Positions 18,001 to 23,307 of a stretch of DNA of 23,307 bases are shown piece after piece. The position numbers were made by a program. The stretch is from Escherichia coli (GTDB taxonomy: Bacteria; Pseudomonadota; Gammaproteobacteria; Enterobacterales; Enterobacteriaceae), in assembly GCF_003334255.1 (NCBI RefSeq), contig NZ_QOWU01000066.1, one strand, 5' to 3'. How positions within the stretch are numbered: the first letter of the stretch is position 1; every line of letters begins with the position of its first letter.

Positions 18001-21000
18001 AGCGGCAAGTCAGAAAAATGCATCTTCTGTTACCCACGAATTGAGTCCGGTCAACCGACCGTGTGCTCAGAAACCTGCGTGGGTCGCATCCGGTATCTGG
18101 GCGTGCTGCTTTACGACGCCGACCGCATCGAGGAAGCGGCGAGCACCGAGCGCGAAGTTGACCTCTATGAACGCCAGTGCGAAGTGTTCCTCGATCCACA
18201 CGATCCCTCAGTGATCGAGGAAGCCCTGAAACAAGGTATTCTACAAAATGTGATTGACGCTGCCCAGCGTTCGCCAGTCTACAAAATGGCGATGGACTGG
18301 AAACTGGCACTACCGTTGCACCCTGAATACCGCACCCTGCCGATGGTCTGGTACGTTCCTCCGCTGTCACCGATTCAGTCCTACGCAGATGCGGGCGGTT
18401 TGCCGAAAAGCGAAGGCGTGCTGCCCGCCATCGAAAGCCTGCGTATTCCGGTGCAATATCTCGCCAATATGTTGAGTGCCGGCGATACCGGTCCGGTACT
18501 GCGGGCGCTGAAACGGATGATGGCGATGCGCCACTATATGCGTTCACAAACCGTGGAAGGCGTTACTGATACTCGTGCCATCGACGAAGTAGGCCTGAGC
18601 GTCGCCCAGGTCGAAGAGATGTATCGCTATCTCGCCATTGCCAACTATGAAGATCGTTTTGTTATCCCGACCAGCCATCGGGAAATGGCGGGCGATGCCT
18701 TCGCAGAACGCAACGGCTGCGGTTTTACCTTTGGCGACGGTTGCCACGGTTCGGACAGTAAATTCAACCTGTTCAACAGTAGCCGTATCGATGCCATCAA
18801 CATCACCGAAGTGCGCGACAAAGCGGAGGGCGAATAATGCAGATCCTCAAAGTGATCGGCCTGTTGATGGAGTATCCGGACGAGCTGTTGTGGGAATGCA
18901 AGGAGGACGCGCTGGCGTTGATCCGCCGCGACGCGCCGATGCTTACGGATTTCACCCACAACCTGCTTAACGCGCCGCTGCTGGATAAACAGGCCGAATG
19001 GTGCGAAGTGTTTGACCGCGGGCGCACCACGTCGCTGCTGCTGTTCGAACATGTTCATGCCGAGTCCCGCGATCGCGGCCAGGCAATGGTGGACCTGCTG
19101 GCGGAGTATGAAAAGGTCGGCCTGCAGCTGGATTGTCGGGAACTGCCCGATTATCTACCGCTGTATCTGGAGTATTTAAGCGTACTGCCTGACGATCAGG
19201 CGAAAGAAGGATTGCTCAATGTTGCGCCGATCCTCGCCCTGCTTGGCGGTCGCTTAAAACAACGCGAGGCACCGTGGTACGCGTTGTTTGATGCTCTGCT
19301 GCAACTGGCGGGAAGCTCCCTTTCAAGTGACAGTGTCACAAAACAAGTAAACAGCGAAGAGCGCGATGACACCCGCCAGGCGCTTGATGCAGTGTGGGAA
19401 GAGGAACAGGTGAAGTTTATTGAAGATAACGCCACGGCGTGTGACAGCTCGCCGCTTAATCAATATCAGCGACGCTTTAGCCAGGATGTCGCGCCGCAAT
19501 ATGTCGACATCAGTGCGGGAGGTGGGAAATGATTCAGTATCTGAACGTCTTTTTTTACGATATCTACCCGTACATTTGTGCGACGGTGTTTTTCCTCGGC
19601 AGCTGGCTGCGCTACGACTACGGGCAGTACACCTGGCGCGCCTCCTCAAGTCAAATGCTCGATAAACGCGGGATGGTGATATGGTCGAATCTGTTCCATA
19701 TCGGCATTTTGGGGATTTTCTTCGGGCACTTGTTCGGCATGTTAACGCCGCACTGGATGTACGCGTGGTTTTTGCCAGTGGCAGCGAAACAACTCATGGC
19801 GATGGTGCTCGGCGGTATTTGCGGTGTGTTGACGTTGATTGGCGGCGCAGGACTGCTGTGGCGCAGGCTGACAAATCAGCGCGTGCGTGCCACTTCCACT
19901 ACGCCGGATATCATCATCATGAGCATTTTGCTGATCCAGTGTCTGTTGGGGCTAAGTACCATACCGTTTTCAGCACAGTATCCTGATGGTAGCGAAATGA
20001 TGAAGCTGGTGGGTTGGGCGCAAAGCATTGTCACTTTCCGTGGTGGATCGTCAGAGATGCTCAACGGCGTAGCGTTCGTCTTCCGCCTGCATCTGGTGTT
20101 GGGAATGACCATCTTCCTGCTCTTCCCGTTCACCCGACTGGTGCATGTGTGGAGCGCGCCGTTTGAGTACTTTACTCGTCGATATCAAATTGTGCGTTCG
20201 CGGCGATAATTTCACCCTGGCCGGATAGCCCTTCGCTCTCCGGCCACTTGCAGGCTATGATAGTTCTCCAGTCACAGGAGAACGTTAATGAAACCGCAGG
20301 TGTACCACGTCGATGCTTTTACCTCACAACCGTTTCGCGGCAATTCTGCCGGTGTTGTTTTCCCCGCCGATAATCTTAGCGAAGCGCAAATGCAGCTTAT
20401 CGCCCGCGAGTTAGGCCATTCGGAAACTGCTTTTCTGCTGCACAGCGACGACAGCGATGTGCGCATCCGCTACTTTACGCCAACGGTTGAAGTGCCGATT
20501 TGCGGTCACGCGACAGTAGCTGCGCACTATGTACGTGCGAAGGTGTTAGGTTTAGGAAATTGCACGATCTGGCAAACATCGCTGGCAGGAAAACATCGCG
20601 TGACTATCGAAAAGCACAACGATGATTATCGTATTTCGCTGGAACAAGGTACGCCGGGCTTTGAGCCACCGCTGGAAGGTGAAACACGTGCGGCGATTAT
20701 CAACGCGCTTCATCTCACTGAGGACGATATTCTGCCAGGCTTGCCAATTCAGGTGGCAACAACAGGACACTCAAAAGTGATGATCCCACTGAAACCGGAA
20801 GTGGATATCGACGCCCTTTCGCCTGACCTTAATGCGCTGACCGCTATCAGCAAAAAGATTGGCTGCAATGGTTTCTTCCCGTTCCAGATCCGCCCAGGCA
20901 AAAACGAAACCGATGGTCGCATGTTCTCGCCTGCGATTGGTATTGTGGAAGATCCGGTGACTGGCAATGCCAATGGCCCGATGGGTGCATGGTTGGTACA

Positions 21001-23307
21001 TCACAACGTATTGCCCCACGATGGCAACGTGTTGCGTGTTAAAGGCCATCAGGGGCGCGCATTGGGGCGTGACGGTATGATTGAAGTGACGGTGACAATT
21101 CGTGATAACCAACCGGAAAAAGTCACCATTTCAGGCACAGCGGTGATTTTGTTTCATGCCGAATGGGCAATTGAACTCTGAAACCGTTGTCTGATGCGCT
21201 TCGCCTGTCAGGTCTACAACCGGGCTAATGTATGCCGGATAAGGCGTTTACGCCGCATCCGGCAACCTGACATAAATTATTTTCCCGCCTCCGGGTGCGT
21301 ATCAAACGCCGCCATCACCAGCGCTAACTCATCCACGGTAAAGCCATGTTTCGCATCATCCACGCCCAGACCAAACTGTTCTTGCATCACAGCATATAAT
21401 GACGCCACATCCGGTAGATTTCGCTGCTCCACCGCGTGCCCATTTTCATAATGGGTAAAATGAAAATTGGTCAGTGTCAGCTTGCCGCCGTCCGGCAAAT
21501 GGCGGCACATCAGCAAATGATGGCGAAAATGCGACTGCGGCCAGTGCGCCGACCAGAAATTGCCCATCACATAATCGCTTTGTTGCTGCTCGCAGAGATC
21601 AAAACGGTACATCGACTGCCAATGCTGATGATGATTAAACTGCAACACCCAATCATCACCCTCCTGCAACAACCGATACTCTCCGTGTGGCGTGGTCTGC
21701 ACGAGATCGGAAACTAAACGAATCGGCGCGGTTAGCGTCTGCCCACCGAAACCGACATCAGCAATCCATTTTTCCTCTTCCAGTTCCACCAACAGCAAAC
21801 GATGGGTGCGCGGCGGTAATGCTGGCGGATTTGATAACACTACGCGCCCTAACAAGCTGCGAACGTTAAACCCCAGCTCGCGTAACACCCGCTCAAACAC
21901 GCCATTCTGCTCAAAACAGTAACCGCCACGACGGGCTATCACCAGTTTCTCTTCCGGCGATTGATTATCAAGCTGTATTTCCCTCGGCAGCAAAACGTCG
22001 AGGTTTTCAAACGGAATGGTGCAATTGTGTTTCAGGTGCAATGCACGAAGCGTATCAATATTGACCGCAGCAGCTCCCGACCAGTTAATACGGGCAAAAT
22101 AGTGATTCAGAATGGGCGTCATCAGGCGTTTCCCTTAGTGGTTTTCTCAACTTATAACCTGGAATAGACGCCGCACCGGCTATTTTGTGCGATCGCGGAC
22201 ATGCATCACGTTCGCAAATCGCCAATCCCGTTAATTTCGTTACTTATTGCGTTACGGACTACGCTTAAAAAAACCTTCTTCGCGAGGCGATACCATGAGC
22301 CGATTCATCCCCATAGAATTACACCATGCCAGCCGTCTGTTAAATCATGGCCCAACGGTCTTGATCACCAGTTTCGATGAGCAATCCCAGCGGCGTAACA
22401 TTATGGCTGCAGCCTGGTCAATGCCGGTGGAGTTTGAACCTCCACGCGTGGCGATTGTGGTAGATAAATCGACATGGACCAGGGAGTTGATTGAACATAA
22501 CGGTAAATTTGGCATCGTTATCCCGGGCGTTGCAGCAACTAACTGGACGTGGGCGGTGGGAAGTGTGTCGGGGCGTGATGAAGATAAATTTAATTGCTAT
22601 GGCATTCCGGTTGTGAGAGGCCCGGTATTTGGTTTGCCTCTGGTCGAGGAAAAATGTCTGGCGTGGATGGAGTGTCGATTGCTACCTGCGACTTCTGCGC
22701 AAGAAGAATACGACACGCTGTTTGGCGAAGTAGTATCAGCAGCGGCAGACGCACGGGTATTTGTCGAAGGCCGCTGGCAGTTTGATGATGATAAGCTCAA
22801 TACGTTGCATCATTTAGGTGCTGGGACGTTTGTTACCAGCGGCAAGCGTGTTACGGCGGGTTAAGCATTCATGCTATAACCAGGTTTCTTTATCAAAGCC
22901 TCCATTTGGGGCGCGATTTCGGCATCCCAGATAGCTTGCCAAGATTCTGGTTGAATCTGCTGTAGAGCAATGCTTATCGAACTGTCTTTACTGTTCAGAT
23001 GACGAATAATAACGTCGGTAATATCTGCAGCAAGTGCTGCTTTTTGTTGTTCGTCCAGTTCACGCGGAAAACATTTAATGTCGATGTGCGGCATGATTAC
23101 GCTCCTTTTGAAAGATGTCAGTAAAATTAACACACATTGTGAATGTCATGTGTCCGGTAAAGCGTTTATACGACAATAATGCCCAGGGCAAGATTACGAA
23201 AGCCCGCTCCCCGTAAGGACTGACGCCAGGTAGTTTCTGTCCATGGCTGCTTTTCGCATCTTACGTCTTAACCCTGCCTTGAATACCTTATCATTCGTCA
23301 AAATATT

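Follow-up and report, generated by a model that had tools for sequence, protein, structure and literature searches.

We examined a 23,307-nucleotide stretch of the Escherichia coli chromosome (contig NZ_QOWU01000066.1, assembly GCF_003334255.1; hereafter the window), in which the genes yddE, nhoA, yddH and pptA lie together and the stop codons of the convergent yddH and pptA overlap within a shared TTAA. The locus is very probably a vertically inherited backbone of the Enterobacteriaceae, in which the genes are neighbours by descent, not by selection for togetherness, and in which the overlap resulted from stepwise change of the yddH/pptA junction. From the junction comparison, the TTAA overlap appears to be a derived minority allele that arose by a one-base deletion in the old pptA stop codon, and not a design. 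An earlier reading of this DNA, the original prediction, had described the overlap and had read the four genes, placed near yddG, as hinting at a loosely associated set that handles aromatic or amine compounds. The observation was confirmed, and the interpretation was partly supported. The 2.8-kb segment with the four genes was matched in all 5426 complete RefSeq genomes of E. coli, and at least 80% of it was covered in 5354 of them.

The shared stop codons of yddH and pptA

Positions 22859-22866 of the window read G-G-T-T-A-A-G-C. The yddH stop is the TAA at 22862-22864 on the plus strand, and the pptA stop is the complement of the TTA at 22861-22863. Direct reading therefore agrees with the predicted overlap of the two stops, as does the RefSeq annotation of an identical E. 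coli locus (L001), where yddH (6008-6577, plus strand) and pptA (6574-6807, minus strand) share 4 nt of coding sequence. The pptA start codon is the complement of the CAT at 23092-23094.

The junction of the window was compared with those of E. coli O157:H7, NCTC9066, 94-3024, JML285 and A12, of E. whittamii, of E. albertii and of others. The window and L001 carry GGTTAAGCATTCATGCTATAACC, from which one A is gone between 22869 and 22870 of the plus strand. The sequence GGTTAAGCATTACATGCTGTAACC was found in the listed E. coli strains, in E. whittamii and in L005, a locus labelled E. coli that has one further substitution in the junction spacer. The E. albertii junction is almost the same, with a spacer of 4 nt. 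The Escherichia junction without the deletion thus consists of the yddH TAA, a spacer of 3-4 nt and the TTA that is the complement of the pptA TAA after codon 75 (...Tyr-Ser-Met), and the RefSeq annotation of O157:H7, NCTC9066, 94-3024, JML285 and A12 gives a 228-nt pptA and a 3-nt gap. On the pptA strand, the change is from ATG TAA TGC TTA ACC to ATG AAT GCT TAA CC. Two residues, Asn-Ala, are gained, and the 77-amino-acid reading frame stops on the complement of the TTA within the yddH GGT TAA.

A stop codon stands right behind pptA codon 75 in every other genus examined. The PptA clusters in a collection of 5.8 billion proteins are nearly all of 75 amino acids, with the 77-amino-acid form being an E. 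coli cluster, and the family profile has 75 positions. By parsimony, these data indicate that the 75-amino-acid PptA is ancestral. The form GGTTAAGCATTACATG, with a 3-nt gap and a 75-amino-acid PptA, is that of other Escherichia and of about two thirds of E. coli. The overlap allele (shared TTAA, 77-amino-acid PptA) was present in 1475 of the 5426 complete E. coli genomes (27%), which is about one third of those bearing the junction. The 3-nt-gap allele occurred in two variants, one in 1597 genomes, pptA remnants counted in, and the other in 1464. Overlapping yddH/pptA stops were found in none of the 80 loci collected from GTDB with one genome per species. A test against chance would not be applicable to the overlap, because it would be a single event with a traceable mutational origin.

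Terminators and transcription at the junction

A consensus terminator scan gave no site at the yddH/pptA junction and one weak site, which lies inside pptA at 23027-23040 on the plus strand and is a candidate 3' end for yddH read-through only. The whole region held three terminator-like sites, compared with 3.7 in shuffled sequences. Folding revealed a weak, imperfect hairpin of 9 bp with one bulge over both stop codons (-8.3 kcal/mol; -9.0 kcal/mol in the 3-nt-gap allele). It is made of the last codons of yddH and pptA and has a U-rich tail on one side only. This hairpin was rejected as a terminator on account of its low stability and its lack of conservation in L005 and in the E. albertii locus L006. 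The combination that marks a bidirectional intrinsic terminator, namely a GC-rich hairpin with an A-run upstream and a T-run downstream, was absent from the junction of the window. The claim that the junction leaves no room for separate terminators was thus upheld by both scan and folding.

In other genera, the spacer between adjacent yddH and pptA is 18-267 nt long. The three short spacers that were folded (L013, L061 and L065) form strong hairpins of -22 to -24 kcal/mol, and that of L013 is a textbook bidirectional terminator, AAAACGGGCGGATTTTCCGCCCGTTTTTT, of about -24 kcal/mol. Most other loci have kilobases of unrelated genes between yddH and pptA. The overlap allele appears to be recent and, judging from the spacers, to have arisen at a junction whose terminator spacer Escherichia had already lost.

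Overlapping transcription of the pair has been reported. The ExcludonFinder study (Nucleic Acids Res 2025, PMC12288877) lists pptA-yddH among the 165 convergent excludons of E. coli MG1655, whose transcripts overlap in 50% or more of 58 RNA-seq samples. This listing fits with the absence of terminator space at the junction. Of the features of a convergent excludon, the overlap of convergent genes is seen here, as 4 nt common to the coding sequences with no terminator between them, the overlap of the transcripts being taken from the published list (PMC12288877).

Conservation of the gene order

An alignment of YddH was scanned against one genome per species in GTDB, which gave 80 loci, 75 from Enterobacteriaceae and five more distant. 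The genes yddE, nhoA, yddH and pptA were placed in each locus by tblastn. Among the 75 Enterobacteriaceae loci, nhoA lies divergently within 10 kb upstream of yddH in 72, and pptA lies within 10 kb downstream in 61, in convergent orientation in all 61. Close contact is less frequent. In 35 of the 72 loci nhoA is directly adjacent and divergent to yddH with a gap of 105-250 bp, and the other half carry 3.2-6.8 kb between the two genes, for example an ABC transporter. The genes yddH and pptA are adjacent in 18 of the 75 loci. The gene yddE is present in only 12, from Escherichia and some Citrobacter, and the same 12 hold all four genes.

The unrelated narV served as a control. In 30 of 72 loci it is next to nhoA, with or without yddE in between, compared with 35 of 72 for nhoA-yddH; linkage among the members is thus not above linkage to an unrelated flanking gene. 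What occupies the intervals varies with the genus. In Klebsiella, the ABC transporter separates nhoA from yddH, which is followed by an AraC regulator, a rhamnosidase and a major facilitator superfamily (MFS) transporter. The genes yddH and pptA are kept apart in Enterobacter by an elongation factor G (EF-G)-like gene and an ArsR-type regulator, and in Citrobacter by an alkyl sulfatase. Citrobacter also carries a PAAR toxin gene in the yddE/nhoA gap. On one Citrobacter contig (L094, 6840-8692), the PAAR-domain gene is accompanied by a small downstream open reading frame (ORF), which marks the yddE/nhoA gap as an insertion site too.

The steadiest neighbour of pptA is a GST-family gene, located directly upstream on the same strand with a gap of 38-150 bp in 38 of the 59 loci with an intact pptA. 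The GST-pptA pair may be the ancestral pptA transcription unit, split in E. coli by an Rhs/ISAs1 insertion. We also observed that the pptA genes behind a GST-family gene are often preceded by an amino-acid-type ABC transporter and a GNAT acetyltransferase (L093, 13222-14107; L004-L083).

Beyond the family, the co-occurrence did not recur. In five YddH loci with 64-67% identity (Limnobaculum, Pantoea, Leminorella and LSJC7), no nhoA, pptA or yddE was found within 10 kb; the neighbours are either TetR regulators with Old Yellow Enzyme (OYE)-type reductases or a carotenoid cluster with a zinc alcohol dehydrogenase next to it. Five NAT loci with 43-54% identity to NhoA, chosen from a search of 1.84 billion representatives, contain no PF01613, PhzF or tautomerase gene within 5 kb. 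The predicted neighbourhood is therefore conserved as co-occurrence within Enterobacteriaceae, and in this small sample of five YddH and five NAT loci nothing was found beyond vertical synteny. In L097 (4308-5813), from a 5-Mb genome, a NAT gene with 47% identity to NhoA is directly preceded by a co-oriented GST-family gene. A GST gene may be a more mobile partner of nhoA-like and pptA genes.

Gene loss within E. coli

Of the 5426 complete E. coli genomes, 4084 have a full-length pptA. Another 570 or so retain just 59 nt from its 3' end, and some 770 have no pptA at all. The gene is thus missing or truncated in about 25% of E. coli, and these keep yddH. The members are therefore not retained or lost together: an intact pptA in 4084 genomes compares with 5354 for the three-gene block, yddE is confined to its 12 species loci, and pseudogenes affect single members.

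In L002, similarity to the window stops right at the yddH stop codon. In the window itself, an ISAs1-family (H-repeat) element comes to within about 90 bp of the pptA start on the upstream side, and RefSeq places an "ISAs1-like ISEc5 family transposase, incomplete" there. In L003 (6629-6720) the same ISAs1-family end abuts the 59-nt pptA remnant, an arrangement shared by about 570 E. coli genomes. The yddH/pptA junction is the edge of a variable region with Rhs, ISAs1 and type VI secretion system (T6SS) genes.

Two pseudogene cases were recorded. In O157:H7 (L084, 1290-2876) nhoA is frameshifted and yddH is N-terminally shortened to 147 amino acids. In NCTC9066 (L085, 301-1194) a stop codon lies inside yddE.

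Proposed history and alternative explanations

According to the favoured explanation, the backbone would have the order narZYWV, [yddE], nhoA, yddH, a variable stretch and pptA, and the small-molecule enzyme genes in it would be four independently transcribed units. Its junction would have changed in steps. Other genera with adjacent yddH and pptA have a strong hairpin of the bidirectional-terminator type in the short spacers folded, and this state would have come first. The spacer would then have shrunk to 3-4 nt (TAA-GCA-TTA) in the Escherichia lineage. In the lineage of K-12 and of the window, the T of the pptA TAA stop would have been deleted, after which the pptA frame would read AAT GCT (Asn-Ala) and stop on a TAA, the reverse complement of the TTA in the yddH ...GGT TAA. 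With no terminator between the two genes, each transcript would run antisense into the partner gene and end inside its coding region.

Several points weigh against this account. In most Enterobacteriaceae genera, nhoA, yddH and pptA retain their order and orientation within 10 kb, and this could reflect weak selection beyond the reach of the narV control. The short divergent region of nhoA and yddH contains conserved blocks, which makes a shared regulator of the two genes possible. The allele counts come from short junction queries searched by megablast with a 28-nt exact word, which yields disjoint sets; of the 4653 genomes in which some pptA sequence is present, 4536 were assigned an allele, leaving about 117 unclassified. 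As for the transcript ends, we infer that termination would be mostly Rho-dependent, because the read-through RNA is untranslated antisense.

It is very unlikely that the four genes and the nearby yddG are a loose functional neighbourhood for aromatic or arylamine compounds, kept by selection without co-transcription. The products could all plausibly act on small aromatic or unsaturated substrates, and the nhoA-yddH-pptA order and orientation persist in 61-72 of 75 loci. However, the scarcity of yddE, the unrelated genes inserted between members, the equally tight link of narV to nhoA and the lack of partners near the distant YddH and NAT genes all argue against it, as do the variable presence of pptA and the pseudogenes of nhoA, yddH and yddE in some E. 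coli. Moreover, yddG is 10.4 kb off, across the nar operon, and a literature search on co-regulation or shared function of the four genes found no report. The predicted functional set is therefore not supported. A narrower proposal confines the unit to the divergent nhoA and yddH, with a flavin-dependent reductase that makes or consumes the (N-hydroxy)arylamines acetylated by NhoA, under one control region. We consider it distinctly unlikely. The direct adjacency with conserved TTATAA and GTGC blocks in about half of the loci speaks for it, as does the resemblance, however faint, of YddH to HsaB, whose gene lies next to nat in an operon of M. tuberculosis (PMC2764864). Against it count the insertions in the other half of the loci, an adjacency not more frequent than that of narV and nhoA, and the separation of the nat and hsa genes in other mycobacteria (PMC2764864). 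A PF01613 neighbour was found in none of the five distant NAT loci and a NAT gene in none of the five distant YddH loci, and YddH itself is nearest to flavoredoxin-like FMN-binding proteins with no assigned role.

The tail-to-tail yddH/pptA arrangement might also be a selected excludon, in which transcriptional interference and RNase III cleavage would make the expression of the flavin reductase and of the tautomerase mutually exclusive. This is unlikely. The missing terminator, the published listing of the pair (PMC12288877) and the invariably convergent orientation in the 61 loci with both genes within 10 kb are what such a device would have. The close apposition, however, is specific to Escherichia, with terminator-like hairpins in the folded spacers or kilobases of other genes elsewhere; about a quarter of E. 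coli keep yddH without an intact pptA; and the listing uses a criterion of RNA-seq coverage (PMC12288877). A combination of the last two ideas, in which nhoA/yddH would encode a pair of enzymes that reductively activate and acetylate nitro-, azo- or hydroxylamino-aromatics and the Escherichia yddH/pptA junction would be an excludon switch between flavin reductase and tautomerase, has in our judgement a very small probability. Descent with stepwise change of the junction remains the explanation that we favour.

Features of the window and gene assignments

The coordinates of the features are collected in Table 1. The four genes alternate in strand, in agreement with the original prediction that they form no operon. 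Their predicted identities were sustained by NCBIfam equivalogs for three of them, by PF01613 and PDB 3HMZ for YddH, and by RefSeq.

Table 1. Features of the yddE-pptA segment of the window and the evidence for each.
Feature	Position	Strand	Evidence
yddE, PhzF-family isomerase, 297 aa	20288-21181	+	ORF, NF007625 equivalog, RefSeq coding sequence
REP-type palindromic repeat GCCGGATAAGGCGTTTACGCCGCATCCGGC in the 95-bp gap of convergent yddE/nhoA	21235-21264	.	sequence, recurrence, folding
nhoA, N-hydroxyarylamine O-acetyltransferase (NAT family), 281 aa	21277-22122	-	ORF, NF011621 equivalog, RefSeq coding sequence
Divergent 172-bp nhoA/yddH intergenic region with the conserved blocks TTATAA and T..GTGC	22123-22294	.	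MAFFT alignment
yddH, flavin-reductase-domain (PF01613) protein, 189 aa, ATG start	22295-22864	+	RefSeq coding sequence, homologues, PDB 3HMZ
Weak imperfect hairpin over both stop codons	22859-22881	+	folding
TTAA common to the yddH and pptA stops	22861-22864	.	direct reading, 4-nt overlap of coding sequences in RefSeq
pptA (ydcE), 4-oxalocrotonate-tautomerase-family protein, 77-aa allele	22861-23094	-	NF002324, PDB identity
1-nt deletion site, ancestral GCATTACATG to GCATTCATG here; T of the ancestral pptA TAA stop gone	22869-22870	.	junction comparison
Terminator-like hairpin and T-run antisense to pptA	23027-23050	+	consensus scan
End of ISAs1-family (H-repeat) element	23184-23307	-	RefSeq at the corresponding place

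Three of the proteins scored above curated NCBIfam cut-offs. YddE reached 553.7 bits with NF007625 (cut-off 386) and 442.1 bits with TIGR00654 (cut-off 76.2). NhoA reached 628.4 bits with NF011621 (cut-off 493), and PF00797 was found on its orthologues. PptA reached 158.5 bits with NF002324 (cut-off 83), its residues 1-75 of 77 aligning with the 75-position profile. The PptA N-terminus is MPHIDIK, with Pro right after the initiator Met, and the sequence is identical to that of the crystallised YdcE (PDB 1GYJ, 1GYX and 1GYY). Matches of PptA to the DmpI model were weak (E = 1.6e-5) and under the cut-off. The L001 annotation names the four products PhzF family isomerase, N-hydroxyarylamine O-acetyltransferase, flavin reductase family protein and tautomerase PptA.

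For YddH, the PF01613 domain was read from homologues, being precomputed on cluster representatives at 95-100% identity. The only NCBIfam match of YddH was the model of HsaB, which we take to be a PF01613-type flavin reductase, at E = 9e-4 and far under the cut-off. Comparison with PDB 3HMZ ("Flavin reductase domain protein, FMN-binding", where FMN is flavin mononucleotide) gave E = 1.1e-36. Among solved structures, YddH is nearest to FMN-binding proteins with a flavin reductase domain and to flavoredoxins, and only the generic PF01613 domain is assigned to it. A TTG start at 22247, which would give a yddH product of 205 amino acids, was ruled out: the start shared by the homologues is the ATG at 22295, whose M1 does not vary in the alignment.

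An alignment by MAFFT of the nhoA/yddH intergenic region in 37 adjacent pairs revealed two blocks at least 90% conserved across genera. The first, TTATAA, lies some 30 nt from the nhoA start, and the second, T..GTGC, another 30 nt or so beyond it. By their conservation, these blocks may be promoter or operator elements. The repetitive extragenic palindromic (REP) element between yddE and nhoA forms a stable hairpin on both strands, and the part of the query that bears it (query positions 942-978) is repeated at 11 places in the median E. coli genome. An Rfam scan of 20000-23307 returned, as its sole match, naRNA4 below threshold (39.9 bits), which is the REP element.

Upstream (5') of yddE, the window contains maeA, adhP, fdnIHG, yddG (8977-9858), narU and narZYWV. 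The gene yddG is thus present, as predicted, and it is near the four genes only in a loose sense, since 10.4 kb with narU and the respiratory nitrate reductase operon narZYWV separate it from yddE. The fdnG gene (5698-8745, minus strand) appears as two ORFs of 195 and 803 amino acids. The alignment of the larger part with the formate dehydrogenase-N alpha profile begins no earlier than position 212, as expected from an in-frame TGA selenocysteine codon.

Significance and comparison with known systems

The locus, its annotation, the structure of PptA and the overlapping transcription of pptA and yddH are already known, and the significance of the present analysis is small. It adds that the K-12 PptA of the crystal structures, with 77 amino acids and an Asn-Ala tail, appears to be a derived allele of a family whose norm is 75. 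It also illustrates how a frameshifted reading frame can be "caught" by a palindromic TTAA where two genes meet tail to tail, and it cautions against inferring design from overlapping stops or function from synteny within a single family.

A literature search on the function of yddH returned just gene lists, one Klebsiella preprint and the excludon list. In the preprint, Klebsiella pneumoniae yddH (KPN_01888) carried identical missense changes, Arg114Leu and Ala118Glu, in all ten mutants evolved on glyphosate or fosfomycin (bioRxiv 10.64898/2026.05.15.725383). Variants shared by every mutant may just as well reflect how the parent strain differs from the reference genome.

The window was finally set beside known systems. 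The RefSeq pptA-yddH-nhoA-yddE locus of E. coli K-12 has the same genes, order, strands and 4-nt stop overlap, with no sequence difference. We take its pptA to be b1461 and its yddE to be b1464. The dmpI/xylH genes for 4-oxalocrotonate tautomerase belong to the same superfamily as PptA and lie in meta-cleavage operons, whereas pptA lies outside any catabolic operon. The nat operon of M. tuberculosis (hsaA-hsaD-hsaC-hsaB-nat) resembles the window in that a NAT gene adjoins hsaB (PMC2764864). It differs in being co-oriented, devoted to cholesterol catabolism and not general in mycobacteria, whereas nhoA and yddH of the window are divergent and the likeness of YddH to HsaB is slight. NAT with PF01613, followed up as a recurrent pair from this mycobacterial lead, was dropped after none of the distant NAT loci contained it. 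The MG1655 excludon concerns the same pptA-yddH pair, which the paper lists without further treatment (PMC12288877). A bidirectional intrinsic terminator is present at the orthologous junction of L013, whereas in the window the spacer is gone and what is left is the bulged hairpin of coding sequence.

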